Assembly: GCA_028717805.1 (NCBI GenBank)
Contig: JAQUNC010000004.1
Location: forward strand, 5,549 to 69,548
Source of the DNA: Atribacterota bacterium
Lineage (GTDB): Bacteria; Atribacterota; Phoenicimicrobiia; Phoenicimicrobiales; Stramentimicrobiaceae
Length of the DNA: 64,000 nucleotides
Reading direction: 5' to 3'
How positions within the stretch are numbered: the first letter of the stretch is position 1; each line of letters begins with the position of its first letter. The notes beneath the pieces are model-generated. The model ran no database searches and was not told where the DNA came from. It saw only the letters and a program-made list of their open reading frames with translations. Shown here one piece after another: positions 10,622 to 37,905 of this stretch. The position numbers and the translations under genes were made by a program.

Positions 10622-10653
10622 TCTTATTAACTTATTATAAAGGAGTGTACCGG

Positions 10654-13086: not shown

Positions 13087-13255
13087 ATTCTAAAATATGA
13101 AAATTAGGGTAAGCGAGTTTTTCTTACTTTTGGGAATACCAGTTTATTGATGATCACGGCAGGAATTACCTTACTAAAAATAATTTATAATTATTGGAAA
13201 GATATTGTCTATAATTTGTCTGCAATTAATAATATAAGGTAGGAGGAGTTAAAAA

Positions 13256-14779
13256 CTGTTAAATCATCGATCTAGTGGCTTATTAATGCCTATATTTTGC
13301 CTACCTTCCAGATTCGGGATTGGGGATCTGGGACCACAAGCTTATCAATTTGCCAATATATTAAATAAAAATAAACAACAATTCTGGCAAATCCTTCCTT
13401 TAAACCCTACCGAATTAGAACACGGTAATTCGCCTTATTTCTCTTATTCTGCTTTTGCCGGCAATCCTCTCTTAATTAGCCCAGAACTACTCCATCGGAA
13501 TGGTTTATTAAGTAAAAGCGATTTGGAAGAGTATCTTCTACCGGAAAAACCTGAAATAGACTTTAGTAAAGTCTATCCTTTAAAACAACAAATATTGCAA
13601 AAAGCGGTGCTGGTATTCTCTAAATTACCAAAATTGCAGAAGGAATTTGCTGATTTCTGTCAACAACAGGCTTTCTGGCTGGAGGACTATACCCTCTTTG
13701 AAGTTTTACGCCATCAATTTAATCATCAGCAGTGGAATGAGTGGCCAGTACCCCTCAGAGAGCGGAATATGGGAACACTGACAGAATTTAAGAAAACTAT
13801 GTCAGCTGAAATTGAAAGATATAAAATTATCCAGTTTCTCTTTTTTAGACAATGGTATGAATTTAAACATTATTGTAAGGCTAAAAATATCAAGATTATT
13901 GGTGATATGTCTATCTATGTTACCTATCAGAGTGCTGAGGTCTGGACTCATCCTAAATTGTTCAAGCTGGACAAGAATAAAAACCAATTCTGCCAGGCTG
14001 GTGTTCCGCCTGATTATTTCAGTCCAACGGGGCAGCTTTGGGGAAATCCCGTCTATAAATGGTCAGCACATCTAAAAGAAAATTTTCAATGGTGGCAAAG
14101 ACGTATTGCTCATAATCTGACCTTATATGACTTATTGCGCATAGACCATTTTCGAGGCTTGCTGGCCTACTGGGAAATACCAGCAGGCGAAAAAACTGCG
14201 ATCAAGGGCAATTGGGTAAATGGTGGTGGAGAAGATTTTTTCTATATGCTAAAAAGAGAGTTTCCTGATTTGCCTTTCATTGCTGAAGACCTGGGAGTTA
14301 TAACTGAAGATGTAGTGCAGGTTATGAATCAGCTTAGGTTACCTGGGATGCGAGTACTGCAGTTTGCTTTTGGTGAAAGTTTTCCTCACAGTATACACCT
14401 TCCCCACAATCATATCACAAATTGTGTAGTCTTCACTGGAACACATGACAATAATACTATACAAGGATGGTGGCAGAAAGAAATAAAAAATCAACAAAAG
14501 ATATTGGTTAGGCAATATTTAAGCAAGGATATCACTACTAATAATGTACATTGGGAATTTATAAGACTGGCGCAATCCTCTGTTGCAAACTTAGCCATCA
14601 TAGCGGTTCAAGATATGCTTGGATTAGGAGAAGGGGCTAGAATGAATAATCCTGCCTGTACCAGGGGGAACTGGCATTGGCGTCTGACAAATAGACAGAT
14701 GTCTGAATTAAAAGAAAATGCACTTCCCAGATTAAAGAAAATTATCCATACTTATGGCAGAGACAAAACATTAAATTAG
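13256..14779 (+). CDS. malQ: 4-alpha-glucanotransferase (amylomaltase, GH77)
   Basis: GH77 motifs are present: GIGDLG, IIGDMSIYV, LWGNPVY.W, RIDHFRG, AEDLGVIT and GTHDN. The conserved N-terminus RSSGLLMPIFCLPS starts upstream of ATG 13286. The frame opens at 13253 after TAA. CTG 13256 lies 9 nt after GGAGG (13242-13246). Confidence 0.85.
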   Translation: MLNHRSSGLLMPIFCLPSRFGIGDLGPQAYQFANILNKNKQQFWQILPLNPTELEHGNSPYFSYSAFAGNPLLISPELLHRNGLLSKSDLEEYLLPEKPEIDFSKVYPLKQQILQKAVLVFSKLPKLQKEFADFCQQQAFWLEDYTLFEVLRHQFNHQQWNEWPVPLRERNMGTLTEFKKTMSAEIERYKIIQFLFFRQWYEFKHYCKAKNIKIIGDMSIYVTYQSAEVWTHPKLFKLDKNKNQFCQAGVPPDYFSPTGQLWGNPVYKWSAHLKENFQWWQRRIAHNLTLYDLLRIDHFRGLLAYWEIPAGEKTAIKGNWVNGGGEDFFYMLKREFPDLPFIAEDLGVITEDVVQVMNQLRLPGMRVLQFAFGESFPHSIHLPHNHITNCVVFTGTHDNNTIQGWWQKEIKNQQKILVRQYLSKDITTNNVHWEFIRLAQSSVANLAIIAVQDMLGLGEGARMNNPACTRGNWHWRLTNRQMSELKENALPRLKKIIHTYGRDKTLN

Positions 14780-16789: not shown

Positions 16790-17272
16790 AATAGAAAGAA
16801 TATTATTTTCTCCAGGGTATCATGAGATTGAATAATGGTGCATACTGCTGGCAATCGTATACATAACTTTCTCCTGGACCTCAGCTGCGGTTTTTCCGTC
16901 TTATATGTACTTTAATCCTCATACCTTGATCATAAAAATTCTAATATCTAGTCCTGATAGATATTATTGATCTATGAAATACTATATACTAACTATTTTC
17001 AGCTAAATTTTAAAATACCCAGATCCAAGGGATCAGCAAAAGAACCAAATTATCAATGGCGTATTCCAAATCCTTACTTCTACCAGCAACAACTCAATAT
17101 AATGTTCTTCCAATTTTACTGGAGTATGGGGAAGATAACCTCCTAAAAACGTTGGACCAGCATCAGCGGCTAAATAGTCTATATCTCACCTAAGTCCATA
17201 GCAAAATGAGTTCTTTTCAATTATATTTTCTCCCAGATTTCCGGTAGAGACTAGAACTGATGATTTCCTCAT
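16790..17272 (-). pseudogene. Possible decayed gene remnant (broken reading frames)
   Basis: The minus strand reads ATG(17272) MRKSSVLVSTGNLGENIIEKNSFCYGLR*. Shifted-frame fragments follow: DIDYLAADAGPTFLGGYLPHTPVKLEEHYIELL... and ...RKLCIRLPAVCTIIQSHDTLEKII. There is no intact ORF in a ~730-nt gap. Family not recognised. Confidence 0.25.
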
Positions 17273-17376: not shown

Positions 17377-17775
17377 TTATTGTTTCTCCAAAACTTCCAA
17401 AGGTGTTGTCGCTCTTGAACCCTTATCCCCAATCGCTTCAATAGTGTACACTCCTGGTTTTAGCATGACTGTTGGGATACCACCTGCTGGTTTTAGTTTA
17501 AAAGCACCATATTCATTAACGGTAACAAATCCTCCGGTACCTACTTCAGCAAAGGCAAAAGGAACTCCATCTACTGTCATAATTACCTTTACTTTTTCTC
17601 CTGGAACAAACCCGGCACCATAAAAGGTTAACTTAGTTCCAGGTTCCCCATTTATGGGTGTTACCACAAGACTGGTTACCTTCTCTTCTACAGCACAAAC
17701 CATTCCAACAGAGATTATTGTCATAACCAAAACCAAAAAAATTAGAAGAACGCTTATTTTCATACGACATCTCAT
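17377..17775 (-). CDS. Small secreted/anchored beta-sandwich (Ig-like) protein, last gene of TRAP operon
   Basis: 132 aa. The N-terminal hydrophobic segment is followed by alternating beta-strand pattern (KLTFYGAGFVPGEKVKVIMTVDG...GVYTIEAIGDKG). Same strand as the upstream TAXI gene, 71 nt downstream of it. Confidence 0.6.
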   Translation of the reverse strand: MRCRMKISVLLIFLVLVMTIISVGMVCAVEEKVTSLVVTPINGEPGTKLTFYGAGFVPGEKVKVIMTVDGVPFAFAEVGTGGFVTVNEYGAFKLKPAGGIPTVMLKPGVYTIEAIGDKGSRATTPLEVLEKQ

Positions 17776-17846: not shown

Positions 17847-18869
17847 TTACTTTTTACTCTCTGGTGGAATAAAACGTTCCGGTACATCTATCCCGTTTTC
17901 CAAACAATACCTGTAAAGTCCTGCATGGATTGGTATTTCACCCCCTGGTGCTACTAACTTAAAATAGTCAGTAATAGGATCCCATCCCACTATTCCAGGA
18001 TATGCCGTCGCAACTTCATCAAAACCTTCGACATAAGCCTTTACAATTTCATAACCAACTTCTTCCGGTAAATTAGAGGAAGCCACTGCACCAACAACCT
18101 GTCCTTCTTCCATTATAGATGGATTATCCGAAAGTTCTAAGATACTGCCTGCCGGGGTTTCAAAGAAAAGGATATAGGGGTACTCTGCTCTTATCTTTTC
18201 TATATCATCTTCACCATAACCAATAGCTGCTAGAGGAGTTTTTAAATTTAATTCAATTAAAGAAGAATCTAAGGAAGTCAGTCCACTGGATTTTTGTAAT
18301 CCAACAATACGACCTTGACTAAATAAATTGATAGCATCACCCAGGGTTGCGGGCACTATATCAATCCCACTTCCGATAACTTCATCAAAGTTAATAAAGT
18401 TAGTCGTAGAAGATGCTCCAGGTATACCGGGAGAAAATTTTTTACCTCCTAAATCCTTAAAAGTTTTTATCCCGGAATCTGCTCTGATGTATAGTCTGTT
18501 AACAATAGCATTTCTCAAGAATAACCATCTTATTGGCTCCCATGCTTCCCCTTCAAAATTGCTAATTCCTCTATGTAATTGCATTGCAGAAGCAGAGTCA
18601 ACACACAAGGCAAAATCAAATGATCCTTCCCTGGTTCTTCTTAAATTATCCAAGGCGGCACCACTCTCAATAACTGTTGTAATTATGTTGTTATCTGCCT
18701 TATTGATAACCGAAGCAGTTCCAACACACCAGGCATATAATCCGGATGTTGAAGAGGTACTACCCATATTTAAATAGACAGTTTGGGCAGATACATTGCC
18801 TACTAGCACACTAAACGCCAGTATCAAGATAAGCACAAAAACCAATCCACTTAGTCTTCTGTTTTTCAT
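17847..18869 (-). CDS. TAXI-family TRAP transporter solute-binding protein (copy 2)
   Basis: 340 aa with a signal peptide, NMGSTSSTSGLYAWCVGTASVINK and the C-terminal IPIHAGLYRYCLENG typical of TAXI receptors. Confidence 0.85.
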   Translation of the reverse strand: MKNRRLSGLVFVLILILAFSVLVGNVSAQTVYLNMGSTSSTSGLYAWCVGTASVINKADNNIITTVIESGAALDNLRRTREGSFDFALCVDSASAMQLHRGISNFEGEAWEPIRWLFLRNAIVNRLYIRADSGIKTFKDLGGKKFSPGIPGASSTTNFINFDEVIGSGIDIVPATLGDAINLFSQGRIVGLQKSSGLTSLDSSLIELNLKTPLAAIGYGEDDIEKIRAEYPYILFFETPAGSILELSDNPSIMEEGQVVGAVASSNLPEEVGYEIVKAYVEGFDEVATAYPGIVGWDPITDYFKLVAPGGEIPIHAGLYRYCLENGIDVPERFIPPESKK

Positions 18870-18972
18870 TTTTACTCACCTCCTTTCTATTCTGTTTTTT
18901 CCCAAATATTATTTTGGTATTACCATAAAACATTGGTTAATGTTTGGTAATAACACACTATTTCTATTATCT

Positions 18973-20874
18973 TTACAACTTTACCAGTCCTAACCTTTTT
19001 ATAACATTATGTTGATAGAACAGCATTGGTATTACGATAGCCACACCAATGATGGATAAAATATGTTTAGGACACATCAGTAAAATTCCACTCCCAACGA
19101 ATACTAATCGAAATAAAACATTTAAATTACTTTTTACTCTCCCAAAAAACCCATATGCTAGTAGTATTGCACCAAAAAATGCGCTCCCTACATAAGTTGC
19201 TACTGAAATAGTATCACTGCGACCTACCAGAGAAGGATTAAGTACAAAAAAATAGGGAATAATGAAAGCAACAATACCCAGCCTGACTGATACTAAGGCA
19301 GTTTTAAACCAATTACCTTTAGCAATACCAGCAGCAACAATTGCCTGGGTACAGGTAGGAGGAGTTACTCCGCCTAAGATGGCCCAGTAAATAAAGAATA
19401 GATGCAAGGCTATCTGATCAACTCCCAGCCTTATTAGTGAAGGAGCAAGTATAGAAATAGACAATATATAAGTTGGTACTACTGGTAGAGAGGTTCCTAA
19501 AATAAAAGGGATAATAGTGGCTATTAATAATGCCAATAACAAATTATTTCCTCCAACCTCTAAGATTACAGAACTCAACTTGGGAGCAATACCGGTAATG
19601 CCAATCATATTAACCAGAATATTTACAGACACTAAAATTGGTACAATTTTACAAAGAGCTAATCCTCCTTCACTTAATCCATCCCTTATCTTTGTTAACG
19701 TATATTTTACTCCTTTTGGGGAAAGATCAGAAAGCAAGAAAATTACAATAACTGAAACGCAAGCATAAAATCCAGCAAAGATTAAGGCTCTACCTCTAGC
19801 AATAGAATATAGGAGTACTGCCATAGGAATAACTAAGGAGGCTATTCTATTAAATTTTAAAATACTTTGCCATTTGGGAATTTCATTCTCAGGTACTGCA
19901 GCTAAACCAGATCGTACTGTCTCAAAATGTACTCCAGCAAAGACTCCGGTATAATAGAGTAAACAAGGAATCAGGGCATAAGCTATAATTTTTAAATAGG
20001 GAAGACCCAAAAATTCTGCCATAATAAAAGCTGCCACACTCATAATAGGTGGAGTAATTCCTCCTCCTGTTGAAGCAATAGCTTCCACTCCAGCTGCAAA
20101 ATCAGGATTATAACCCAACCGTTTCATTAGCGGAATGGTGTAACTACCGGTAACTACCACATTAGCTACACCACTACCGGAGATACTCCCAAAAAGAGCA
20201 CTTGATACTACTGCTGTTTTGGCTGGCCCACCCCTGTATCTACCGGTTAATGCTAATGCAATATCAATAAAAGTCTTCCCTCCACCTGCTCCTGAAATGA
20301 GGGCACCAAATATGATAAACATAGCAATAAAAGTTGCTGACATCCCGGTGATACTTCCATAAATTCCTAGAGCAGAAAAATATACTGAATTAATAACAAA
20401 TTTCCAGGATAAACCCGGTAACCTCCATATTCCTGTCAATTTTGGACCAAGAGATATATAGAGAAATAACAATCCCACAAATATTGGTATTGCCCAACCT
20501 ACAGATCTTCGTGCTGCATCAAGTATAACTATTATTAAGAGAGAGCCAATGATTAAATCAAAAGTTGATGCACTTCCCGGAATCATATAAATTTTCATTG
20601 CCTTTAAAAATGTATTAACATTTGCTATTATTATTATGGTAATGACACATACATCCCAAAAGGAAATTTTTTTGTTTTCTTGATTTGATTTACCATAAGG
20701 ATAAGCCAGAGATGCAAGGGAAACTCCAAGAATAATATGAATTGCTCTCAACTGTAAATCTATTAGAGTTATAAAAATGGGAAGAATAAGCTGTGTAAGG
20801 GCAAAAATAATACCACCCCAGAATAGTACCTGGTTTCTATCCAAAATAGACCTCCCTTTATTTTGGATCGCCAT
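18973..20874 (-). CDS. TRAP transporter fused 4TM/12TM permease (TAXI type, copy 2)
   Basis: 633-aa polytopic protein. The block LFGSISGSGVANVVVTGSYTIPLMKRLGYNPDFAAGVEAIASTGGGITPP is paralogous to the 27194-29080 protein. Confidence 0.85.
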   Translation of the reverse strand: MAIQNKGRSILDRNQVLFWGGIIFALTQLILPIFITLIDLQLRAIHIILGVSLASLAYPYGKSNQENKKISFWDVCVITIIIIANVNTFLKAMKIYMIPGSASTFDLIIGSLLIIVILDAARRSVGWAIPIFVGLLFLYISLGPKLTGIWRLPGLSWKFVINSVYFSALGIYGSITGMSATFIAMFIIFGALISGAGGGKTFIDIALALTGRYRGGPAKTAVVSSALFGSISGSGVANVVVTGSYTIPLMKRLGYNPDFAAGVEAIASTGGGITPPIMSVAAFIMAEFLGLPYLKIIAYALIPCLLYYTGVFAGVHFETVRSGLAAVPENEIPKWQSILKFNRIASLVIPMAVLLYSIARGRALIFAGFYACVSVIVIFLLSDLSPKGVKYTLTKIRDGLSEGGLALCKIVPILVSVNILVNMIGITGIAPKLSSVILEVGGNNLLLALLIATIIPFILGTSLPVVPTYILSISILAPSLIRLGVDQIALHLFFIYWAILGGVTPPTCTQAIVAAGIAKGNWFKTALVSVRLGIVAFIIPYFFVLNPSLVGRSDTISVATYVGSAFFGAILLAYGFFGRVKSNLNVLFRLVFVGSGILLMCPKHILSIIGVAIVIPMLFYQHNVIKRLGLVKL

Positions 20875-20897: not shown

Positions 20898-23800
20898 TTA
20901 TAGTTCTAATGGTACAAAATTTTTCTTCATAATACGAATGGCTTTTTCAGGGTCAATTCTTCCGTAAAGACCTCCGACGGTTGATAAAATATAAGAAGCG
21001 TCCAATAATACTTTATGGTTTGGTCTCAAAACGGTATATTCTTTCGGATTGAAAAGGGCTCCTTTTACAATCATCTTAAGATCTTCTATAAGATAATCTT
21101 TGTTTTCCTTACATTTATGATACACTGTTCCACCAACTATTACCAGTGTGCAATCCTGAGTAAAGAAATTGACTCCTTCTTGCAAGAAATAAACATCAGT
21201 TTCTTTGACATGCCCTACATTATTAGCAGTAGCTACTGCTAAAGTTTCCTTAGCCAGAACGCTTCTGATGAAGTTTTCCTCTTCTGTAGTGGGCATAATA
21301 TGGGGATTATCGTGAATCCACTTTAAATATTCCTTTAGCTTGATAAACCATTTTTGTTCTTTATAAACTAAAAATCGATCCATATGGTCACCATTCTCCT
21401 GAAAATCAGGATATTTCTGATTAAACAAATCGCTAATTTCCTTTTCTACTGAACCATTTTTAAATTTTTCCAGTTCCATTAAATTTTCTGCGTTATAAGC
21501 TAATCCATATTTACCTTCTACTCTCCGATAAGCCAGAGGGTAATTGGGAGTTTTTAGTATAGTTCTTTTAACTTTTTTCTTAGGATCATCCCAGGGATAA
21601 TGATACAAGGGATTGGAATGTACATTGGCAAAAAAGTCAGTAGTACAACCACCAATATCTAAAGCCACGATATTCCCGATCCCTTCTTCTTCACCATAAC
21701 CGCGAGCTAACAAATTAATTCCTAAGAAAGCTGCTCGGGGAGTTGGTATAAATTTTGTACTCATATACTCTTCTACCACATCAAATCCCTTGCCTCGGAT
21801 AACAACAGTCTGAAAGAGTTCTCTTATTGCTTCATTTACTACATCAATGTTATACCTGTTAACTTCGGGCATAATATTGCCAGTTGCCCTTACATCAATA
21901 TTGTGACTATGGAAAATATCCAGTATTTCCTCAGTAACATCTTCATTTCCAGCATAAATTATCGGTATTCCATATTTAGCATAGGTTGCTAATTTTGCAG
22001 TTTCAGCTAATATCTTAGCATTGTGTAATACAGTTTCTGTATCTCCACCTTCATTAACTCCACCACTTAAGAGAATAATTTCCGGGCCATCTTCTAAATA
22101 AATTGCTCGAGCTTCTTCTAAAGATAATTTTCCGTCATAACTATTGAGAAGTTTTGCCCCTGCGGTCAGAGCTGCAAGATCAGCAGCAAATCCACTCTCC
22201 CTTTCAGTAGAAGCAACAGTAACCATTTTTAAACCACCTTTTGCACTACTGCAGGGAAGTTTTATATCAAATTCATTCATCATCTTCCGTAAAGGTTCCC
22301 AGTTGCCTTCTTTCCTACATTTGTCAAGACACCCTAAACCATTCGCCAAACCTTCACGAATATCGTCAACTGTAGTTGGAACGTAACGTAAATCCACTGC
22401 ATCTGAATTGGTATTAAAGATAGCAATTTTGGTGTAAGTACTACCAAAATCTACCGCCAATATTTTTTTATCCCGCAAATCTTTTAATCCTAATTGGTCT
22501 CTAAATGATAAGAGGAGATGGTCTTCAACGATAGCATCCTTTGATTCTGCTACTATTGATAATTCATCAGTCTGGCTAACATCTTTATAGAAATACCAGG
22601 GGAATCGTTCTCTAACCTTATCAACTCTTTCAATTTCATCTTTTACCTTTTGCAGACAAAATTCATCAATGCGACAAGTTCCATCAATAATTTTAGTCTT
22701 ACACATTCCTGCTAACTCATAGCGTTTATCTATCACTGTTACCTGGGGTGCCTGGAATAAACCAACCTGTAACGCTAAATCCAGGTTATCAGCACTAATC
22801 AGGTCACATTGCCCAGATGGGTAATTCTTTTCATCAATTAAATCCAGTAACATTGTTTCATAGTTCTTTGCTCTATCAGCAACATTTTCCCTTTTGGCAG
22901 CTTCTCCAGGATTAACTGTATATTCAAAAAAGTTTTCTAAATTTATTTTACCTTCATATCCTCCCATTAAAGCTAAATGAAAGATATTATACATAGCTCC
23001 TTTCTTTAACTCTTCCTTCCGAGATATTACATCAGGAAGCTGCCAGATCTCAGGAAGAGGCGTGCGATAGTACTCTTCGACAGTCTGTTTGGTAATATCA
23101 CAGCTAGCAATAATGTCTTCTGCCTTAGCATCATGGTGCGCTTCACAGTAGCTAACCACATGGATAATATCGGGGTCCATAAACATCTGCCAGTAAGTGG
23201 TCATGGTAAGATGGCTTTTTGCCTTATCTAGATTGGGTGGAAAGCTGGAAAGGCCTCCTCGAGTTTCTTTAGTAATACTAAAATCAAAATGCCTGGTTAG
23301 TGGCTCAATTAGTTCAAAAGCTGCCTTCATTTTCCCTAAATCATATCTGGGATTTATTTCTGGAGGCAAATCAAACATTAATTGCATGACATAATTCTTT
23401 ATACCCATTTTTAGAGCAATAATTCCACATAGGATGTGGTCTGTAACATACATGTCATCTGAGCACCTTCGGAGTTGCCATTGATGGGGATCATTTATCT
23501 CCAGTGGTTTGTTTATAGAAGCCCACCAGCGCATGGTATTAAAATGTTCATTAATGCCATCCAGAATAGAAAGAGGGCCTCGTCCATCTAAACGGTTATA
23601 AAAGAATACAGGCACTGCTGGAAACGGCATATGTAAAGTTTCCTCAAATATCTTAGCTAATTCCACTAATTCATCGGTACCAGAGTATATTCTAATCATA
23701 GGGTAATTTCCACATTGAGTTGCCTCTTTTAACCTCCTTAAATCCTCTTTACTCCGAATTGGTGCACCGCCTTCTCCTTTACGATATTTCTCCGGATTTT

Positions 23801-24554
23801 CCTCTCCCCGAACAAATTTAGCCAGAAATGCCTGACTGGCCTGATCCGGAGCTAAAGAGACAATCTCCAGAGCTGCTGCTTCACTTATTTTTCTGGTTCC
23901 CTCTACTGTTGGTTCTATTGTTTCGGCAGCTGCACCAATATGAGCTCTGATGATTGGTCTATTTTCTAATTGACGTACCTGTTTTATCCTTTCTAATAAG
24001 TCATCAGACCATTTTATTTTCTCTCTGGCAACTCTTATTTTTTTCTGAGCAAAATATTCTAACTCATCCATTGTTACATAATCATCAACCACCATTTCGA
24101 AAAATCCCTGGAATTTTTCTTTATTTTTATATTCTTGAGCAATCTTTTCCAGATTAAAATGTCTATCTTCAGGAGGAGAAAATCTATCCTCCAGTATGCG
24201 TAAGCCAGTCATTGCTCTGACTAAATTAGCTGCGGGTCTTAATCCACCAAAACAATACCTTATTCCACTTTTTTCTGGCTGCAATCCATATTTATATACT
24301 TTTTCTATCAACTCTTCGATAATTTCATCAACATGCAAATCTCCCAGGCGATAACTAAAGGTGACCACTTCTGCTTTTGACTCTCTAATTTTATCTATCA
24401 ATTCATCAATAGATACAGCTGGTCCTAATTTAATGGCAATATAACCTATTCCTTTGCTCTCCAGCCACTCAGCAAATCTTTCTACCCCTAAGGTATGAAC
24501 ACAGGGGTCTATAGAACAGTTTAATACTCTTCTTTTTTTGTTCGATTTATCCAC
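20898..24554 (-). CDS. Single-chain fusion: B12-binding-like domain + glutamate-mutase-E-like middle region + GlmL/MutL-type ASKHA ATPase domain
   Basis: 1218 aa with a GTG start 8 nt after AAGGAGAG. Residues ~8-135 follow a Rossmann B12-domain pattern (RRVLNCSIDPCVHTLGVERFAEWLESKGIGYIAI...FSYRL...YCFGGL). Residues ~700-1218 carry GlmL-like ASKHA motifs (ILAVDFGSTYTKIAIF, ILLSGGVNEGGD, VALDIGGCTTDF, LVIVGGT). By eye only, the middle ~500 aa resembles the C-terminal half of GlmE (GGLSSFPP..., CEAHHDAKAEDII). Confidence 0.7.
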   Translation of the reverse strand: MDKSNKKRRVLNCSIDPCVHTLGVERFAEWLESKGIGYIAIKLGPAVSIDELIDKIRESKAEVVTFSYRLGDLHVDEIIEELIEKVYKYGLQPEKSGIRYCFGGLRPAANLVRAMTGLRILEDRFSPPEDRHFNLEKIAQEYKNKEKFQGFFEMVVDDYVTMDELEYFAQKKIRVAREKIKWSDDLLERIKQVRQLENRPIIRAHIGAAAETIEPTVEGTRKISEAAALEIVSLAPDQASQAFLAKFVRGEENPEKYRKGEGGAPIRSKEDLRRLKEATQCGNYPMIRIYSGTDELVELAKIFEETLHMPFPAVPVFFYNRLDGRGPLSILDGINEHFNTMRWWASINKPLEINDPHQWQLRRCSDDMYVTDHILCGIIALKMGIKNYVMQLMFDLPPEINPRYDLGKMKAAFELIEPLTRHFDFSITKETRGGLSSFPPNLDKAKSHLTMTTYWQMFMDPDIIHVVSYCEAHHDAKAEDIIASCDITKQTVEEYYRTPLPEIWQLPDVISRKEELKKGAMYNIFHLALMGGYEGKINLENFFEYTVNPGEAAKRENVADRAKNYETMLLDLIDEKNYPSGQCDLISADNLDLALQVGLFQAPQVTVIDKRYELAGMCKTKIIDGTCRIDEFCLQKVKDEIERVDKVRERFPWYFYKDVSQTDELSIVAESKDAIVEDHLLLSFRDQLGLKDLRDKKILAVDFGSTYTKIAIFNTNSDAVDLRYVPTTVDDIREGLANGLGCLDKCRKEGNWEPLRKMMNEFDIKLPCSSAKGGLKMVTVASTERESGFAADLAALTAGAKLLNSYDGKLSLEEARAIYLEDGPEIILLSGGVNEGGDTETVLHNAKILAETAKLATYAKYGIPIIYAGNEDVTEEILDIFHSHNIDVRATGNIMPEVNRYNIDVVNEAIRELFQTVVIRGKGFDVVEEYMSTKFIPTPRAAFLGINLLARGYGEEEGIGNIVALDIGGCTTDFFANVHSNPLYHYPWDDPKKKVKRTILKTPNYPLAYRRVEGKYGLAYNAENLMELEKFKNGSVEKEISDLFNQKYPDFQENGDHMDRFLVYKEQKWFIKLKEYLKWIHDNPHIMPTTEEENFIRSVLAKETLAVATANNVGHVKETDVYFLQEGVNFFTQDCTLVIVGGTVYHKCKENKDYLIEDLKMIVKGALFNPKEYTVLRPNHKVLLDASYILSTVGGLYGRIDPEKAIRIMKKNFVPLEL

Positions 24555-24588: not shown

Positions 24589-25779
24589 TTATAAATTAAC
24601 AATCTGTTCTAAGTTGTTAAGACCATAATTTTGAGGAATTCTTGTTTCAGATATATCTCTCCCCTTCACATCACCATTGACTAAATATTCTTTTTTCATC
24701 CACTTACTGACTGTAATAATAACCTCATCAATGCTGGGAGTATCTACTTGTGCTAGTAAAGCAATTGCTTTAGAAACTATTAATCCAAAAGGTACATCCT
24801 CAGTGAGATAACGTGATTGAAAGTCTGGTTTATAATAACCATTTTCTAAATCTTTCATAGGCGCATATAAACCTTGATAAGCTTGATTGGTAATAAAACA
24901 GGCTTCTAAAGTATGGTCATCTATAATTGAATTTTTATAAGAAGATATGAGCCAATCCTCTAAGCTTAATACATTTGTCAAGTCTATATTTTTAAATCTA
25001 TTTTGAAGTTTCCTGGTTAAGGCAAGCATATCATTGCTCATATTGGCAAGTGTTTTAGCAATATTACTGGTTACTCCATGATAAAAGAGGGGAATGTCTT
25101 CTTTTTTATATTTTCTATTTTCATTTCCTTTGAAAAGTCCATACATAATTCCGGGGTGCACAATCTGACCGATATTAGCTAAAGTAAGGGTCAACATATT
25201 AGGGATGGGCTCCACTTTAATATTTAGTAAATGAGTAAATATTTCTGATAATTCTAAAGTAGCTTCCCGGGGCAGGGCTGCTAATCCTACTATGTCTTTT
25301 TTTCCCAAAATATCCACTTTGCTGGCATATTCTCTGGTTCGACAAGCCCAGGGAAGCGTTTGTAAACCAAAAAATTTAATTTTTTTATCAGTAACACTCT
25401 TTAAAACTTTCAATAAAGAATATTCAAAACCACCTCTGGCCGGTATTGATCCTATAATTACTTCATTCTTTAAAAAAGGGATTATTTGCAATAGAACCGA
25501 TTCTTGAGCAAATGCTGGCAGAGGCAAAAGTATCAAATCAGCATCCTGGCATACTTCTTCTGGAAATCTACTTACTTTATCTGGTCTCCCATATAATTCT
25601 TCTTTGCCTTGTACTGCAGTGATAACTCTGCTTTCATCAATTATCCTTTGAAAAATATCAACTTTATGCTGATAACGAAAAAAAAGATTAATTTGACAAT
25701 TAAAATTACTTTTGATAATTGGAATCATGGCATGAGCTGCATTCCCGCTTCCACAAATAGTAATGGTCTTAATACTCAT
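24589..25779 (-). CDS. NAD(P)-dependent octopine/nopaline (opine) dehydrogenase family protein
   Basis: 396 aa. The N-terminal dinucleotide fold ITICGSGNAAHA and the LQTLPWACRT segment are typical of opine dehydrogenases. First gene of the second operon. Confidence 0.75.
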   Translation of the reverse strand: MSIKTITICGSGNAAHAMIPIIKSNFNCQINLFFRYQHKVDIFQRIIDESRVITAVQGKEELYGRPDKVSRFPEEVCQDADLILLPLPAFAQESVLLQIIPFLKNEVIIGSIPARGGFEYSLLKVLKSVTDKKIKFFGLQTLPWACRTREYASKVDILGKKDIVGLAALPREATLELSEIFTHLLNIKVEPIPNMLTLTLANIGQIVHPGIMYGLFKGNENRKYKKEDIPLFYHGVTSNIAKTLANMSNDMLALTRKLQNRFKNIDLTNVLSLEDWLISSYKNSIIDDHTLEACFITNQAYQGLYAPMKDLENGYYKPDFQSRYLTEDVPFGLIVSKAIALLAQVDTPSIDEVIITVSKWMKKEYLVNGDVKGRDISETRIPQNYGLNNLEQIVNL

Positions 25780-25886: not shown

Positions 25887-25915
25887 ATTATAATAATATT
25901 TCTTTTTTCAGTCAA
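25887..25915 (-). promoter_or_regulatory. Sigma-70-type promoter of the opine-DH/mutase-like/TRAP operon
   Basis: The minus strand reads TTGACT (25915-25910), a 17-nt spacer, then TATAAT (25892-25887). Confidence 0.6.
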
Positions 25916-26104: not shown

Positions 26105-27154
26105 CTAAATTTTTAATTGATTGATTCCTTTTTTTATTAATTCTCTCAAAACATCTACAAACGATTCATGAACACTCGCTGGTAATCCATCAGCACCTGG
26201 TTCAGTATAACCATTAATTCCGTCAATAAAACCAGCATCAGCTGCCTTTTGTAATATCCTTTTCTCTATCTCGCTATTATGAAAAATATCAACGTCATTC
26301 TTTAATAAAGCAATTCCTGCTGCCAATCCATATGCTCCCCAGTTTGATATTACTGCTGTAATTAAATAGTTAGTCTTTGTTGACGGTGCTATTCCTGCTT
26401 GACAAGGACATTTGCACTTATTACCGAAGGGAAGATTTTTTCTGATTTCCTCCTGAATACAGCCCATTCCAATCTCATTTCCTCCATCTCCTATACCTAT
26501 AGTGGTAATATTATTTTTTAGCGCTTCCTGAACCAGATAATCTATTTTTGCCATATACTTACTTGAATCGACTCCTCTGCTGGTATGAATTATTTCTTTT
26601 TTATTCATACCTCCTTTTTCAATAGTGATTACTGCTTTGGGATGGTATTTCCTGATAAGATCAGTAGCTTTCTTTAACGCTATTTCCTTTTCGATAGGAA
26701 ATGAAAGAACTGAAGCTGAATTGATAGGAGCATGATACGCTGGTGTTTCTATTGCTTGGGAAGGTGACAACACTTTTAATCCTGCTGCATTGACCACTGT
26801 AGTCATTCCCTGAACCAGATTCTCTTCAATAAAAATGATAGGTATGGCATGATAGGCTCTATTAATAGCCCGGGCTAAAGATGCTGCACCAGGTGGACCA
26901 TCAGTTTCAGCAATGTCAGGCGTTATCTCTGGCCTATCAGGCCAGCCTGTAGCTATAAAGATAATATCTCCCTTAGTTATAATTTTATCTAATTCCTGAC
27001 TTGCTAGCATAATTAAAGGATATTCTGCCTTATTTCTTGCCCATTGATATAATAAATGGATTACTCCTCTCCCTGGTATATCTAGATTAACTAAACGATC
27101 AATTCTATCAAATATTTCCACCAATTTTTCTTTACTCTTTACAAATGAACTCAT
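26105..27154 (-). CDS. DUF4392 family protein (D-glutamate cyclase-like C-terminal domain family)
   Basis: 349 aa. The stretch IATGWPDRPEITPDIAETDGPPGAASLARAI is the family hallmark as I recall it. Last gene of the first TRAP operon. Confidence 0.7.
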   Translation of the reverse strand: MSSFVKSKEKLVEIFDRIDRLVNLDIPGRGVIHLLYQWARNKAEYPLIMLASQELDKIITKGDIIFIATGWPDRPEITPDIAETDGPPGAASLARAINRAYHAIPIIFIEENLVQGMTTVVNAAGLKVLSPSQAIETPAYHAPINSASVLSFPIEKEIALKKATDLIRKYHPKAVITIEKGGMNKKEIIHTSRGVDSSKYMAKIDYLVQEALKNNITTIGIGDGGNEIGMGCIQEEIRKNLPFGNKCKCPCQAGIAPSTKTNYLITAVISNWGAYGLAAGIALLKNDVDIFHNSEIEKRILQKAADAGFIDGINGYTEPGADGLPASVHESFVDVLRELIKKGINQLKI

Positions 27155-27193: not shown

Positions 27194-29080
27194 TTACGCC
27201 TCTACTTCAGAAAACTGTCTAACTTCTTCTCTTTTTTTAATTCTTTGATAGAAATAGACTAAAATCAATAATATCATTCCTCCTAGGCCTATTTTAAAAT
27301 TGGGAAAGATAAGAAGAATAGCAGCAATTATTAATATAATTCTCTCCAATAGATTAATCCGGGTTAGGAAATAACCCATCAAAGCAATAGCCAGGGCAAA
27401 TATTCCGATTAAAGCTGTACTAAAGGTTCTTAAAATATGAGATGCTGTCCCTATGAAAAGAATTGAATAGTCATTAACAAATACATAGGGAATAATAAAT
27501 CCTGGCAAAGCCATCATAATGGCATAGTAAGCAGTCTTTAACCAATTAGATTGGGCTATTCCTGATGCTACATAAACAGATAAACAAACAGGTGGTGTAA
27601 TGGTACCCAAAATAGCAAAATAAAAGACAAACATATGTGCTGCTAAAGGAAGTAAGCCCAACTCAATTAAAGCTGGACAGGCAACAATTGCAGCAATGAT
27701 ATAAGCAACTGCGGTAGGTAGACCCATTCCCAGAATAATACTTCCTACCATTGCTAATAATAGAGCATAAAAAGTATTACCTCCACTCATAGCTAAAATG
27801 ACTGTAGTCATTTTAATTCCTAAACCAGTCATTGAGACAATTCCCAATACTATCCCAGCACAAGCGCAGGCAATCGCCACTCCTATGGTATTTTTTGCTC
27901 CATATTCCAGTGCTTTCAAAAATACTTTGGGATTCTTTCTAATCTCCTGATTAACAAAACTTATAACAACTGTTGAGATAACCCCATAGAACGCGGCTCT
28001 CGTAGGTGAAAATCCCTGAACTATATAATAAATAATTACAATTAGAGGTATTATTAAATGTCCATTTCTTAAAAAAACTTTTTTCAAATTTATAGATGAC
28101 TTTTCCATCTTAAACCCCATCAACAGGGTACGAAACCTTACACATAAAAATACACTGGCAAAATATAATATAGCCGGTATAGCAGCCGCCTTACATATCG
28201 CAAAATATCTCATTCCCAGCATTTCAGCCATAATAAAAGCTCCCGCGCCCATAACCGGTGGCATAATTTGCCCCCCGGTTGAAGCAACAGCTTCTACTGC
28301 ACCAGCAAATTCTGGTTTATATCCTGAGCTTTTCATAAGTGGGATAGTAAATGAACCCGTGGTAGCAACGTTAGCAGTTGAGCTACCACTAATAGTACCA
28401 AATAAAGCACTACTAATAACAGCAACCTGAGCTCTTCCGCCTATCATTCTACCAGCAATGGCTTGTGAAAAATCCATAAAAAATTCCCCTACTCCTGCCT
28501 CGCTTAAGAATTGGCCAAAAATAACAAACATTACTACAGTAGTAGCGGAAACCCCTAATGGTATGCTCCAGATTCCATCTGAAGTAAGATAGAGAAAACC
28601 AAATATTCTTTCTATACTTAATCCTCGGTGTCCCCATATCCCCGGGATGTAACCACCAAAGCGGGCATATAAAATAAAGATGATTGCCAGAATCGGTAAT
28701 GCCATACCTATTGCTCTGCGACATGCTTCTAGAATCAATATAACAACCATGATGCCTATTAAATACTGAACACCAATAGATAATCCGCTCTGCATGGAAA
28801 TACTGATATAGTTTACAAATATATAGATGCAACTTAACATACCTAAAATGGTAAAAATTATATCTATCAGGCTAGCTTTTTTCTTATTCCAAGGATGTAA
28901 TAAAAAAATCATAGAAAAAACAAACATTAAGTGAACAGACCGTTGTACAAATACATCATATGGTATGGTACCGGCAGTATATAGGTGAAAAATTGACATT
29001 AATATAGCCATTAGCTGTGTATACCTATTTATTGGTAAACTTAGCTTATTATTTTTTTCTTCTCCATTATATTCTGTCAT
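27194..29080 (-). CDS. TRAP transporter fused 4TM/12TM permease (TAXI type, copy 1)
   Basis: 628-aa polytopic protein with LFGTISGSSTANVATTGSFTIPLMKSSGYKPEFAGAVEAVASTGGQIMPP. Confidence 0.85.
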   Translation of the reverse strand: MTEYNGEEKNNKLSLPINRYTQLMAILMSIFHLYTAGTIPYDVFVQRSVHLMFVFSMIFLLHPWNKKKASLIDIIFTILGMLSCIYIFVNYISISMQSGLSIGVQYLIGIMVVILILEACRRAIGMALPILAIIFILYARFGGYIPGIWGHRGLSIERIFGFLYLTSDGIWSIPLGVSATTVVMFVIFGQFLSEAGVGEFFMDFSQAIAGRMIGGRAQVAVISSALFGTISGSSTANVATTGSFTIPLMKSSGYKPEFAGAVEAVASTGGQIMPPVMGAGAFIMAEMLGMRYFAICKAAAIPAILYFASVFLCVRFRTLLMGFKMEKSSINLKKVFLRNGHLIIPLIVIIYYIVQGFSPTRAAFYGVISTVVISFVNQEIRKNPKVFLKALEYGAKNTIGVAIACACAGIVLGIVSMTGLGIKMTTVILAMSGGNTFYALLLAMVGSIILGMGLPTAVAYIIAAIVACPALIELGLLPLAAHMFVFYFAILGTITPPVCLSVYVASGIAQSNWLKTAYYAIMMALPGFIIPYVFVNDYSILFIGTASHILRTFSTALIGIFALAIALMGYFLTRINLLERIILIIAAILLIFPNFKIGLGGMILLILVYFYQRIKKREEVRQFSEVEA

Positions 29081-29130
29081 ATCTTCCTGCTTTCTTTAAA
29101 TGATACGATAATACAACAATTATGATTATT

Positions 29131-29163
29131 ATCAGTCCCCCTATTTTTGATAGGGGGACTGAT
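29131..29163 (-). promoter_or_regulatory. Intercistronic stem-loop (14-bp perfect stem) between TAXI receptor and permease genes
   Basis: ATCAGTCCCCCTAT / ttttg / ATAGGGGGACTGAT. It is GC-rich relative to its surroundings and has no clear U-tract on the minus strand. Confidence 0.5.
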
Positions 29164-29191
29164 AATCCCTACTAATCCTTAATAAGCTGGT

Positions 29192-30160
29192 TTATGGAGT
29201 TAATTCTGTCGGTATTTGAACACCATTTTCGGTATAATATTTAATTGCACCAGGATGATAAGGAACGGTAGAATCCAGGACCTTATCCAAGCCCATATCT
29301 GCAGCGCCCGGATGTGCAGCTAACATAAGATCCTTATGCTCATATAATCCCTTGGTAATCTCATATATAACATCGTCCGGTAAACCTTCTCGACACATTA
29401 ATAATGCCCATGTTCCTACTACCTGAACATTCTCTGAGCCTTCATAATAATCGCCAGCAGGAAAGCTTACCTTGCTAAGGAAAGGTAATTTTTCACGAAT
29501 TTTAGTAACATCCTCATCACTGAATTCAATAACTCGAACCGGTTTTCTTACCGAATATTCCATCCAGGTAGGATTAGAACCACCCTGCCAGTGAGAATCA
29601 ATTGTTCCTGATCTCATCATCTCTGCAGCTTCTGTATGTCGGTAATATGATGGAATGATATTGATATTGATGGCTTCAAATAAAGTTGTAGCAGTCGACT
29701 CAGCAGATGAACCCTTAGGCTGAAGATTAACCCTTTTCCCTTCTAGATCCCAGATAGTTTTAATTGGATTATCTTCATTAACAATAAGGTTCCAATATAG
29801 AATATGAATAGGTGCGATAGTTAAAAGAGGGGTCCCTTGTCCTGCAAAAGCTCCTTCCTGTAAATATACTTCTCGAGCAGTGTCATGAGATACAATACCC
29901 AAATCACCAAATCCTGCATATAATCTTTTAGCATTATCAATATATCCTGGAGTTGCTTCCATTGTTACTCTAGCATCAGGCAATACTACACCAATGACTC
30001 TTGCTACACCCGAAGAATACTGGAAACCAATACCACCAATAACCGAAGACATCACTAATAAATCATATTGTTGGGCAGAACATACCGATACAAACAGAAT
30101 ACTGATCATCAAAACTGCAATTATTAAAATACTGGCTGTTATTTTTAACCTATTAGTCAT
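29192..30160 (-). CDS. TAXI-family TRAP transporter solute-binding protein (copy 1)
   Basis: 322 aa with a signal peptide, GGIGFQYSSGVARVI and the C-terminal VPYHPGAIKYYTENG typical of TAXI receptors. Confidence 0.85.
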   Translation of the reverse strand: MTNRLKITASILIIAVLMISILFVSVCSAQQYDLLVMSSVIGGIGFQYSSGVARVIGVVLPDARVTMEATPGYIDNAKRLYAGFGDLGIVSHDTAREVYLQEGAFAGQGTPLLTIAPIHILYWNLIVNEDNPIKTIWDLEGKRVNLQPKGSSAESTATTLFEAININIIPSYYRHTEAAEMMRSGTIDSHWQGGSNPTWMEYSVRKPVRVIEFSDEDVTKIREKLPFLSKVSFPAGDYYEGSENVQVVGTWALLMCREGLPDDVIYEITKGLYEHKDLMLAAHPGAADMGLDKVLDSTVPYHPGAIKYYTENGVQIPTELTP

Positions 30161-30522: not shown

Positions 30523-31245
30523 TCATGAAGAACTTTCTCTCAATTCAAACTCTTTAATAAGAGATTCTTTTCCATTAATAATATGCTCTCTCATTAAATT
30601 TTCTGCTAATATCGCATCTTTCTCAATAATTGCCTTGACTATCTTCTTATGTTCCTCAATTGATTTTTTTTGTCTATCTGCTTTAGATATAATTTCTGAA
30701 AACCGTTCTCTGGACTTTTTATATAAATTATCTATGATATTGATTAATTCTTTACTTCTACTACATTCCTCTATTATATTATGAAATTTTAGATTTAAAT
30801 TGGCAATGTTCCTTAAAGATCCTTCCTTTAAAAAAAGCTCGCTCTCAGTAATGATTTCTTCTAATTGCCTTATCTCCATTTTGGTTATATAATTATTATC
30901 TATTGCTTTTCTAACCGCTAATCCTCTTAATACACTACTTATATCATAAAACTCATTCAATGCTTCTTTGGTAGGAAGAGGAGCAACTCTTACCCCTTTG
31001 GGTGGAGAAGATACGACTAAACCTTTCTGCTCTAACTCGATAATTGCTTCCCTTATTGGTGTTCGGCTTACTTTCATTAGTTTAGCTAATTTTGATTCTA
31101 CCAATCGCTGGCCAGGCTTTAATTCCCCTCGGAAAATAGCTTTACTTAAAATTGAATATACTTTATCACTAGTAACGGTCTTAACACTTAAATCAATTTC
31201 CGAATTCTGTTTTAAAAAATTATCTAAAGAATCGTTTTTCAACAT
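30523..31245 (-). CDS. GntR-family transcriptional regulator, FadR/FCD subfamily
   Basis: 240 aa. The N-terminal wHTH is KPGQRLVESKLAKLMKVSRTPIREAIIELEQKGLV. The C-terminus is an all-helical FCD-like domain ending EEHKKIVKAIIEKDAILAENLMREHI. Confidence 0.85.
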   Translation of the reverse strand: MLKNDSLDNFLKQNSEIDLSVKTVTSDKVYSILSKAIFRGELKPGQRLVESKLAKLMKVSRTPIREAIIELEQKGLVVSSPPKGVRVAPLPTKEALNEFYDISSVLRGLAVRKAIDNNYITKMEIRQLEEIITESELFLKEGSLRNIANLNLKFHNIIEECSRSKELINIIDNLYKKSRERFSEIISKADRQKKSIEEHKKIVKAIIEKDAILAENLMREHIINGKESLIKEFELRESSS

Positions 31246-34521: not shown

Positions 34522-34639
34522 GATTTATGGTTCCCTTAACGTTGTAAGAATAAGTTCATCATAATTCTTATCACTTTACAACTTAATCTCTTTCCGATAG
34601 CATTATGATAAAATATTGTACCAACAAGGTAAATTTTTT

Positions 34640-35821
34640 ATGTTCATTTTACTTCTTCTGACAATGTCAATTCTAATATTAGGTATACTGGAAAGCTACT
34701 ACCATGAAAAAAGAATTAAAAATATCCCTATTAGAATTCATGTCAATGGCATTCGTGGAAAATCAACTACGGTAAGATTAATTGCATCTATTTTAAGGGA
34801 AGCTGGCTATCAGGTTCTAGCCAAAACAACAGGTACACTGCCAAGGATTATTCTTGAAAATGGGGAAGAAGAATTAATTAGAAGAAGAGGTTCCGCTAAT
34901 ATTATTGAACAAAAATATTTTATACAGAAAGCAACTGAAAGAAAAGATAATGCTATTGTGATGGAATGTATGGCTGTCCATCCGGAAACTCAGTGGGTCA
35001 GTGAGCATAAATTGATTCATTCTACCATTGGGATTATTACCAATGTGCGAGAGGATCACCAGGATGTCTATGGTCCTAATTTACAAGAAGTAGCTAATTC
35101 ATTAAAGTTGACTATTCCAAAAGATAGTGTATTGGTTACTGCTGAGAAAAAATTCTTTCCATGCTTTCAGAAACAGGCAGAAAAGTTAAATACCAGGTGT
35201 ATTCTGGTTGATCCTGAAATGATTACCTTATCTAACAAAAAGGAATACAAAAACATCTTCTTCAAGGATAATGTTGCTGTTGCTTTACAGGTAGGAAAAG
35301 TGCTTAATATTGCAGAAAGTACTTGCTGGCAAGGAATCTTAAAAGCTAAACCAGATCCAGGGGCTCTTGCTATTTATAAATTAAGAGTCGAACACAGCGT
35401 AGTATGGTTTGTCAATGCTTTTGCTGCCAATGACCGGGAATCAATTCTATTGATATGGGATAAAATAAACCGTTTATTACCTGAAGAAATCATTAATTAT
35501 CCCAAAATTGCTATCTTAAATAACCGTAGTGATCGGGTTACCAGAACTATTCAGTTTGCCAGGATTTTAAGTAAGGAAATTACAGTAAATTATATATTGT
35601 TGGTTGGTCAAAATAGCCCACTAAGCTATAATCAATTAAGAAAATACGGTTATCCCTCTGACCAAATAATTTTAGTACCTGATGAAACTAATATTAATCA
35701 TATTCTGGAACAAATTTCTAGATTTATTGCAAAAGAAGGATTAGTTTATGGGCTTGGAAATACTAGAGGATTTGGCTTACGAGTGATGGATTATTTACAA
35801 GAAAAGGGAGAAAAATTATGA
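34640..35821 (+). CDS. pgsB: Poly-gamma-glutamate synthase PgsB/CapB (Mur-ligase family)
   Basis: An N-terminal TM segment is followed by IRIHVNGIRGKSTTVRL, as in CapB. I prefer ATG 34640 over the track TTG 34616, but the start is uncertain. Confidence 0.85.
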   Translation: MFILLLLTMSILILGILESYYHEKRIKNIPIRIHVNGIRGKSTTVRLIASILREAGYQVLAKTTGTLPRIILENGEEELIRRRGSANIIEQKYFIQKATERKDNAIVMECMAVHPETQWVSEHKLIHSTIGIITNVREDHQDVYGPNLQEVANSLKLTIPKDSVLVTAEKKFFPCFQKQAEKLNTRCILVDPEMITLSNKKEYKNIFFKDNVAVALQVGKVLNIAESTCWQGILKAKPDPGALAIYKLRVEHSVVWFVNAFAANDRESILLIWDKINRLLPEEIINYPKIAILNNRSDRVTRTIQFARILSKEITVNYILLVGQNSPLSYNQLRKYGYPSDQIILVPDETNINHILEQISRFIAKEGLVYGLGNTRGFGLRVMDYLQEKGEKL

Positions 35822-37677: not shown

Positions 37678-37905
37678 ATCTCCTTCTTTTTACAATTTTT
37701 TATGACATAAACACCAGTCATAACATTCAAAATCTTTACTTTTTAGTCTTTCCTTAGCATTTTTATATTATTGGTAAATTCAATAATCACAATCACATGG
37801 TCAACTATTAAATATATTCTTATTTAATTTATATTTTCTAGTTTGATTTTTTCCTTTTGTGAAAATTAACCATACTTTTTTTATTTACTTTACTATGCTC
37901 AAATT

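Follow-up and report, generated by a model that had tools for sequence, protein, structure and literature searches.

The stretch of DNA analysed here, called the window below, comprises 64,000 nucleotides of contig JAQUNC010000004.1 (positions 5,549 to 69,548 of the forward strand) from an Atribacterota bacterium, and encodes on its reverse strand a single polypeptide of 1218 amino acids in which a B12-binding domain, a GlmE-like TIM barrel and a GlmL-type ATPase follow one another, in an order written here as S-E-L after the glutamate mutase subunits GlmS, GlmE and GlmL. The protein belongs to a widespread and uncharacterised subfamily of B12 mutases, which is unusual for this fusion, for a Cys in place of the Asp of the cobalt-ligand motif, and for its opine dehydrogenase partner. 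The reading that we favour, and consider fairly likely, is that of an adenosylcobalamin (AdoCbl) carbon-skeleton isomerase of the GlmS/GlmE type, which carries a GlmL-type ATPase in the same chain and would act on a substrate other than L-glutamate.

Architecture and distribution of the fused protein

The gene is an intact single open reading frame (ORF) with a GTG start and an AAGGAG Shine-Dalgarno sequence 8-9 nt 5′ of it. It begins 34 nt past the stop of the preceding gene, which encodes the opine dehydrogenase homologue, and its own stop lies 23 nt from the start of the next gene, for a TRAP permease. An initial annotation, made from the letters alone, had described the product as one polypeptide resembling glutamate mutase S, E and L in one chain, and a check of positions against the translation found all the motifs that it quoted in place. 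The features of the gene are the following:

20898..24554 (-), S-E-L fusion gene, 1218 aa, GTG start (ORF list and translation, Shine-Dalgarno, >120 full-length homologues)
24150..24554 (-), aa 1-135, GlmS-like B12-binding Rossmann domain (Pfam sub-threshold, family profile, Foldseek)
24486..24509 (-), aa 16-23, cobalt-ligand loop D-P-C-V-H-T-L-G, with Cys18 at the canonical Asp position and His20 as presumed lower ligand
24240..24356 (-), S-Y-R-L (aa 67-70) and F-G-G-L (aa 102-105), aligned to S-x-L and G-G of solved corrinoid proteins
22590..24137 (-), aa 140-655, GlmE-like TIM barrel with C-terminal helical part (AlphaFold2, Foldseek, hhalign)
22467..22589 (-), aa 656-696, linker of low predicted order (pLDDT <50 at aa 661-678), variable in the alignment
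20898..22466 (-), aa 697-1218, GlmL/MutL-type ASKHA ATPase domain (Pfam, NCBIfam, AlphaFold2)
aa 702-709, DFGSTYTK, ATPase domain
aa 828-838, LLSGGVNEGGD, ATPase domain
aa 965-974, LDIGGCTTDF, ATPase domain
aa 1138-1143, VIVGGT, ATPase domain

The fused S-E-L architecture is borne out by Pfam, by AlphaFold2 models compared with Foldseek, and by hhalign. In the N-terminal part, the modelled Rossmann fold begins at residue 8 and aligns in Foldseek with GlmS (1cb7_A, TM 0.66), while a profile of the wider family matched the corrinoid-binding domains among solved structures (E 5e-7), with His20 falling on their cobalt-ligand His. The middle region of about 500 residues gave no Pfam or NCBIfam match, and the glutamate mutase E-subunit family Met_asp_mut_E (PF06368) did not match the 1218-aa protein even at E <= 1. 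A sequence search of the whole protein against solved structures found nothing, and the family-profile search against them reached B12 domains only, not GlmE, so that fold comparison and hhalign were needed for the barrel. In a model of aa 1-690 built from 41 homologues (pLDDT 84, pTM 0.75), the top Foldseek matches were GlmE 6h9e_B and 1cb7_B (E 8e-14, TM 0.67 over a 483-residue target), followed by ornithine/lysine aminomutases and methylmalonyl-CoA mutase, with IcmF structures also among the matches. Alignment of the family profile with E. coli GlmE by hhalign paired GlmE 1-481 with aa 140-686 (E 2e-5 to 8e-7), and Met_asp_mut_E itself, with a cut-off of 26.6 bits, was exceeded by one distant relative (P0127, 27.5 bits) and nearly reached by another (P0135, 25.1). 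The conserved strands of the barrel include RAHIG, RIYSGTDE, NDPHQWQLR, ETRGGLSSFPPNL and HVVSYCEAHH. The middle segment is thus GlmE-like, as the initial annotation had supposed, and the model and profile together place in one chain both hallmarks of class I AdoCbl isomerases, the His-on B12 Rossmann domain and the TIM barrel.

The C-terminal domain matches Pfam PF13941 (MutL/GlmL) over aa 698-1212 with 289.6 bits against a cut-off of 27 (E 5.4e-86), and exceeds just slightly the cut-off of TIGR01319 (206.7 against 204.05 bits), whereas its 279 bits against the GlmL equivalog NF040745 stay clearly under the 475 required; it shares 28% identity with E. coli O157 GlmL (E 2e-36). It therefore belongs to the GlmL family as broadly defined by TIGR01319, outside the GlmL equivalog. 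Its AlphaFold2 model (pLDDT 89.6, pTM 0.85) has the ASKHA fold, and the phosphate-1, phosphate-2 and adenosine motifs (D702-F-G-S-T, D966-x-G-G-x-T-T-D and G1141-G1142) are invariant. The fold search found no close solved relative: the best matches were the ATPase subunits of acetophenone and acetone carboxylases and of N-methylhydantoinase, then sugar kinases, all with TM of about 0.3, and the corrinoid activator RACo stood at rank 30 with a similar value. Fold and invariant motifs mark the domain as an ASKHA ATPase; taken alone, they say nothing of the use to which the ATP is put.

Full-length homologues are numerous: over 120 protein clusters, 1200-1270 aa in length, show 61-92% identity. 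A scan of loci, taking one genome per species, yielded 79 with a relative, all of them in metagenome-assembled genomes (MAGs), which span Atribacterota, Anaerolineae and other Chloroflexota, Bacillota, Bipolaricaulota, Thermotogae, Spirochaetales, Ignavibacteriales, Armatimonadota, Acidobacteriota and SAR324, and more distantly Saccharibacteria. One Atribacterota locus, L010, shares 98% protein identity with the window, and 94% DNA identity over 15.5 kb. Of these loci 71 contain the gene at full length, and, contig ends aside, it is one ORF in all but three (L036, L043 and L087), which show apparent MAG frameshifts. An artefact of assembly or annotation joining separate genes, a possibility raised with the initial annotation, could appeal to classical operons such as that of E. 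coli O157, where S, L and E are separate genes. However, the same uninterrupted ORF recurs in all these clusters and in 79 independent MAG loci from many studies, which rules out mis-assembly, and the S-E-L order differs from the S-L-E order of the operon, so that read-through of neighbouring genes cannot produce the fusion; the chance that the ORF is artefactual is practically nil.

An exhaustive search with aa 1-690 returned 368 representatives, among them many S-E proteins of 540-630 aa that stand alone, lacking the ATPase. Two of 80 stand-alone loci (L100 and L103) have a separate GlmL gene just upstream of the S-E gene, as expected if the 1218-aa form arose by fusion of linked genes. Other fusions were also seen, such as S-E with a glutathione-synthetase/RimK-type ATP-grasp (P0127, 863 aa) or with Peptidase_M15 (P0138, 732 aa). 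Three loci whose S-E-L regions are 79-94% identical over aa 1-690 (L009, L015 and L019) are filed under Actinomycetota, Promethearchaeota and Anaerolineaceae MAGs, for which binning contamination by Atribacterota contigs seems likelier than recent transfer. The most divergent fused homologues, at 46-48% identity, come from Saccharibacteria MAGs (L083 and L086). A full-text literature search on the fusion, on the GlmL reactivase and on Atribacteria with glutamate mutase found no paper on the S-E-L family.

The cobalt-ligand motif and the opine dehydrogenase partner

The glutamate-mutase signature D-x-H-x-x-G...S-x-L...G-G is not present in full, as the Asp is replaced by Cys18 and S-x-L reads S-Y-R-L. 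These substitutions, together with the G-G in FGGL, had been recognised in the initial annotation, which called the motif degenerate and suggested an alignment of homologues. In the close family Cys stands two residues before the His in 86 of 87 sequences, with the His, S-Y-R-L and G-G kept, and the positions invariant in 21 homologues and the window protein include His20, Leu22, Gly23, R69-L70 and F102-G103, along with many others. Among representatives at 50% identity, C-x-H-x-x-G occurs in 40 and the canonical D-x-H-T-x-G in 20, the latter being more distant proteins of 600-630 aa; the His, the Gly, S-Y-R-L and the G-G position are common to both clades. One sequence, P0180, reads G-K-D-V-H-N-L-G inside a group that otherwise has G-K-C-V-H-N-L-G. 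The Asp present one residue further upstream in many homologues is not conserved, being Pro in the clade of the window and Asn, Gln, Glu or Ser elsewhere. The strict conservation of Cys18, His20, Gly23, S-Y-R-L and G-G across the family indicates that C-V-H-x-L-G is a conserved, clade-defining variant rather than a decayed motif. PMC6013808 gives a summary of the hydrogen bonding of the canonical Asp-x-His, as it occurs in MetH, methylmalonyl-CoA mutase and glutamate mutase. A conserved Cys for Asp offers a natural experiment on how the hydrogen-bond network of the lower ligand can vary.

Two observations would fit the use of AdoCbl, though neither proves it directly. In five of the scanned loci, L020 (the contig of L008), L022, L026, L027 and L031, the fused gene ends next to a CobA/CobO/BtuR-type adenosyltransferase gene or overlaps it, and another one follows the stand-alone S-E gene in L149. 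In the barrel, E471 aligns by profile with E. coli GlmE E329 and is nearly invariant across the whole family; its counterpart in Clostridium cochlearium, E330, is the ribose ligand of the adenosyl group.

The most constant companion of the mutase, which the initial annotation did not include, is the opine dehydrogenase homologue encoded just upstream. It is similar over its full length to octopine dehydrogenase from Pecten maximus (3c7a, E 3e-63), with the catalytic His and R-Y-L-T-E-D kept. In loci with enough flank, 66 of 71 fused cases and 58 of 67 stand-alone S-E cases have an opine dehydrogenase gene no more than 500 nt away on the same strand, mostly upstream and sometimes downstream, and in one protein of 1657 aa (P0057) it is fused to the N-terminus of the S-E-L mutase. 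The divergent Saccharibacteria loci L083 and L086 show no such gene in their flanks, which are sufficient to judge in L086 only. The mutase and the opine dehydrogenase are a conserved two-gene module, older than the ATPase fusion. A full-text literature search found no paper linking an opine dehydrogenase with a B12 enzyme. The neighbours of the fused gene in the window are listed below:

24589..25779 (-), opine dehydrogenase homologue, 396 aa, Pfam Octopine_DH, 34 nt upstream of the fused gene
25887..25915 (-), sigma-70-like site TTGACT-17-TATAAT, the best of the region, within the 325-nt gap that precedes the opine dehydrogenase gene
26105..27154 (-), protein with a D-glutamate cyclase-like C-terminal domain (DUF4392, Pfam PF14336, E 2e-69), recurring in 7 loci
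27194..30160 (-), TAXI-type TRAP transporter 1 (binding protein 29192-30160, fused permease 27194-29080)
17847..20874 (-), TAXI-type TRAP transporter 2 (fused permease 18973-20874, binding protein 17847-18869)
30523..31245 (-), GntR/FCD regulator heading the cluster; many loci likewise have a GntR regulator

TRAP transporter 2 is kept downstream of the fused gene in Atribacterota loci. In a scan of the region for promoters and terminators, site counts were not above chance, and TTGACT-17-TATAAT is a consensus match only, although its position is suggestive. The genes that recur beside the fused gene in the loci examined are these:

Transport: Opp-type ABC importer (about 34 loci); TRAP or DctM carriers
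Hydrolases: C45 autoproteolytic hydrolase (17), Peptidase_C26 gamma-glutamyl hydrolase-like (12), Amidohydro_3 (9), DUF4392 (7), gamma-glutamyltransferase (4)
Other enzymes: MttB family (12 loci, mostly Anaerolineae), Orr-like racemase (4)
Contig of L008/L020: L-Ala-D/L-Glu epimerase/DgcA-like enzyme and BioF/Kbl-like enzyme

Small peptides, gamma-glutamyl linkages and D-amino acids are the recurring theme of this neighbourhood. The context of the fused family looks catabolic, and its gene content suggests that an acidic amino acid would be obtained from small peptides. The stand-alone S-E proteins (L088-L167), of 540-580 aa and with a C-V-H-V-A-G motif, are likewise paired with an opine dehydrogenase.

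Substrate, rival explanations and proposed working

Glutamate is bound in GlmE of C. cochlearium by the residues R66, R100, R149, E171 and Y181, which correspond to R67, R99, R148, E170 and Y180 of the E. coli protein and are located there in recognisable motifs. Three hhalign runs set H205, Q241, Y290, P312 and G324 of the window protein against them, so that none of the five is kept. The replacement residues are in their turn invariant or almost invariant, and H205 and Y290 are each preceded, two residues earlier, by an Arg (Arg203 and Arg288). Neither the window nor the 166 related loci contain a homologue of E. coli methylaspartate ammonia-lyase (MAL), of the mesaconase FumD or of canonical GlmE. 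The initial description of a protein resembling glutamate mutase holds, consequently, for the architecture and is not supported for glutamate mutase in the strict sense, the substrate being probably a compound other than L-glutamate. Opine dehydrogenases make or oxidise a D-configured nitrogen-bearing carbon, and this preference, taken with the D-glutamate- and gamma-glutamyl-related neighbours, leads us to guess D-glutamate or an N-substituted acidic amino acid; a D-glutamate or N-substituted glutamate- or aspartate-like compound is our preferred, and frankly speculative, candidate.

An ordinary glutamate mutase, converting L-glutamate to (2S,3S)-3-methylaspartate with its three subunits merely fused, would explain why GlmE and GlmS are the best structural matches, why the GlmL model is the best NCBIfam match of the C-terminal domain and why NCBI names homologues ‘glutamate mutase L’; moreover, C4/C5 dicarboxylates and glutamate are frequent cargo of TAXI-TRAP, SDF and DctM carriers. 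Nevertheless, the loss of all five glutamate-binding positions in the alignment, the silence of Met_asp_mut_E, the low score against the GlmL equivalog and an opine dehydrogenase as the constant neighbour where MAL or mesaconase homologues are missing make this explanation very improbable. A methyl-corrinoid system, in which a corrinoid protein is joined to a barrel of methyltransferase type and to a reductive activator that depends on ATP and acts together with MttB-family methyltransferases, could account for weak NCBIfam matches to MtbC-type corrinoid proteins, for the MttB-family genes of the Anaerolineae loci and for the appearance of RACo in the ATPase-domain Foldseek list. Against it, the barrel is like those of GlmE and AdoCbl mutases and unlike methyltransferase barrels, Pfam detects no helical cap (PF02607) before a Rossmann domain that starts at residue 8 and no ferredoxin module in the ATPase domain, which is of the GlmL family, and it is adenosyltransferase genes, not genes of methyl-transfer partners, that are seen to abut the mutase gene; with MttB absent from the window and from most loci, we regard such a system as very improbable.

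The proposal of a cofactor-independent relic, or of a Rossmann domain that has turned from cobalamin to another cofactor, starts from the replaced Asp of D-x-H-x-x-G and the sub-threshold Pfam match. It is contradicted by hundreds of sequences, of many different phyla, in which the Cys, His, Gly, S-Y-R-L and G-G are strictly conserved, by relatives with the canonical Asp and the same architecture, by the Asp of P0180 within the Cys group and by the adenosyltransferase genes linked in five fused loci, and we give it very little credence. The other option put forward in the initial annotation, a divergent B12 enzyme with a built-in chaperone or reactivase, is instead the reading best supported by architecture, conservation and homologies. 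A pyridoxal-phosphate (PLP) aminomutase of the OraSE or KamDE kind seems less likely: these are second-tier fold matches in Foldseek (E 1e-9 to 5e-8, TM 0.35-0.48) and Pfam gives no corresponding match. K42 and K55, invariant in the close family, do not remain conserved in the wider one, and so lend no support to a PLP-binding Lys.

Several observations weigh against an AdoCbl isomerase acting on a compound other than L-glutamate. The window contains no adenosyltransferase gene and no cob or btu genes, and Rfam, applied to its whole length, detects no cobalamin riboswitch, only a lysine riboswitch. The Pfam B12-binding match (PF02310, aa 9-107, E 2e-4) lies under its cut-off, and the Asp of the His-Asp pair, important in glutamate mutase, is gone. 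The MttB-family gene common in Anaerolineae loci hints at methyl-corrinoid chemistry. As to the substrate, the mapping of the active site is a profile alignment of 60-84% probability and hence moderately secure, and adding GlmE homologues, all at least 68% identical to E. coli GlmE, left that probability no higher. Neighbours differ between phyla, which makes the substrate inference weak, and the stand-alone S-E genes have Asn-synthase-like enzymes (14 loci) and Ddl-like ATP-grasp ligases beside them, a context that is perhaps biosynthetic, via the same two-enzyme module.

Gene linkage, conservation, homologies and architecture are observed; for the favoured AdoCbl isomerase, how the cofactor is used, what the reactivase does and in which order the steps run we infer as follows. 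The Rossmann domain would hold the corrinoid base-off/His-on through His20, with Cys18 in place of the Asp next to the ligand, and would dock on the GlmE-like barrel, where the Co-C bond would be homolysed. The resulting 5′-deoxyadenosyl radical would take a hydrogen from the substrate and thereby allow a 1,2 rearrangement. The ASKHA ATPase would spend ATP to release damaged cofactor or to reload AdoCbl, as proposed for GlmL/MutL. The adjacent opine-type NAD(P) dehydrogenase, as obligate partner, would take or supply the rearranged compound, presumably acting on it as product in the catabolic direction, and the logic of the pathway would parallel that of a racemase, D-ornithine aminomutase with Or-4, and a dehydrogenase. 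Rather more tentatively, and with less confidence than in the isomerase itself, the family may represent a third CoA-independent AdoCbl carbon-skeleton mutase, with a tethered reactivase and a Cys-His lower-ligand pair, in an undescribed anaerobic pathway with an opine-type dehydrogenase specific for a D-centre. If so, such a pathway could lead, for example, from D-glutamate of peptidoglycan or gamma-glutamyl peptides to a methyl-branched amino acid and then to a keto acid, and its users would be abundant uncultured degraders of necromass (Atribacterota, Anaerolineae, Bipolaricaulota).

Other features of the window and comparison with known systems

Downstream of the second TAXI transporter, a 132-aa ORF (17377-17775, -), which has a hydrophobic segment at its N-terminus and matches nothing in Pfam or NCBIfam, is kept directly after the binding-protein gene in six Atribacterota loci. 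Further on, just downstream of the operon, window positions 16938-17157 correspond to 17389-20239 of L010, a deletion of about 2.85 kb in the window that removes genes of the AtuA, MmgE/PrpD and DUF4387 families and leaves short remnants. The AtuA and DUF4387 pair occurs as well in the glutamate mutase/methylaspartase cluster of E. coli O157 (ECs_0760/ECs_0759, with the record names ‘3-methylaspartate ammonia-lyase’ and ‘acyl-CoA synthetase’), and may be linked to branched C5-dicarboxylate metabolism.

Elsewhere, a pair of genes at 34616-36249 (+), for a protein with a Mur-ligase middle domain and then a CapC protein, looks like poly-gamma-glutamate synthesis of the PgsB/PgsC kind, which might supply the organism itself with gamma-glutamyl polymers. 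The lysine riboswitch (Rfam RF00168, 110.7 bits) lies at 58889-59076 (-), upstream of a gene of the Na+/H+ antiporter family (NhaC-like, 56981-58648). An alpha-glucan cluster at 3563-14779 (+) comprises a GlgE-like maltosyltransferase, a branching enzyme, GH57 with DUF3536, a 4-alpha-glucanotransferase and a 1111-aa fusion of alpha-amylase and maltokinase cap (TreS-Mak-like). An iron/oxidative-stress island at 37291-49513 holds desulfoferrodoxin, a ferritin-like protein, two Fur-family regulators and FeoB, with CorA, TrkA/TrkH and an MscS channel interspersed. Finally, a 439-aa ORF at 55464-56783 (-), without a Pfam match at E <= 1e-5, adjoins an aldehyde:ferredoxin oxidoreductase gene.

The S-E-L family matters beyond this genome, as its hundreds of sequences are spread over ten or more phyla of uncultured anaerobes and come with a fixed dehydrogenase partner. 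New AdoCbl isomerase reactions are rarely found, and to our knowledge glutamate mutase and 2-methyleneglutarate mutase are the only two of these isomerases that work without CoA esters. Names given in databases, for example ‘glutamate mutase L’, are misleading, since they fit only the last 40% of the protein and hide a probable catabolic pathway of bacteria from the subsurface and from digesters. As far as we know, GlmL/MutL function has gone largely untested since the 1990s, and ATP-dependent reactivation is sparsely documented even for GlmL; the covalently attached GlmL-type ATPase makes the fused protein convenient for settling that function.

Among known systems, the protein is closest in design to GlmS/GlmE and GlmL of clostridia and E. 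coli O157, with which it shares the His-ligand Rossmann domain, the GlmE fold of the barrel including the C-terminal part, and the GlmL-family ATPase; as in the E. coli glutamate mutase cluster, an adenosyltransferase gene lies nearby in some loci. It differs from glutamate mutase in having one chain of order S-E-L instead of three genes of order S-L-E, a Cys for the Asp of the ligand motif, replaced glutamate-binding residues, and an opine dehydrogenase partner instead of methylaspartate ammonia-lyase. The partner itself resembles the octopine dehydrogenase of P. maximus in overall sequence and in catalytic residues. IcmF offers another natural fusion of an AdoCbl mutase (B12 domain and barrel) with a nucleotide-dependent cofactor chaperone, but there the chaperone is a MeaB-type GTPase and the substrates are acyl-CoA esters, whereas here a GlmL-family ASKHA ATPase is joined to a GlmE-type barrel. 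The pathway of D-ornithine 4,5-aminomutase includes the Orr racemase, OraS/OraE, the GlmL-related Or-4 and diaminopentanoate dehydrogenase. It has in common with the present system an enzyme of racemase type, a B12 mutase accompanied by a GlmL-related protein, and an NAD-dependent dehydrogenase; the ATPase domain matches the Or-4 model with E 7.5e-49, an Orr-like racemase gene is found in four loci and OraE is the second-best fold match. The fused protein is unlike D-ornithine aminomutase in that the TM to the latter is only about 0.4, no OraE- or KamD-type Pfam domain is present and the dehydrogenase belongs to the opine family.

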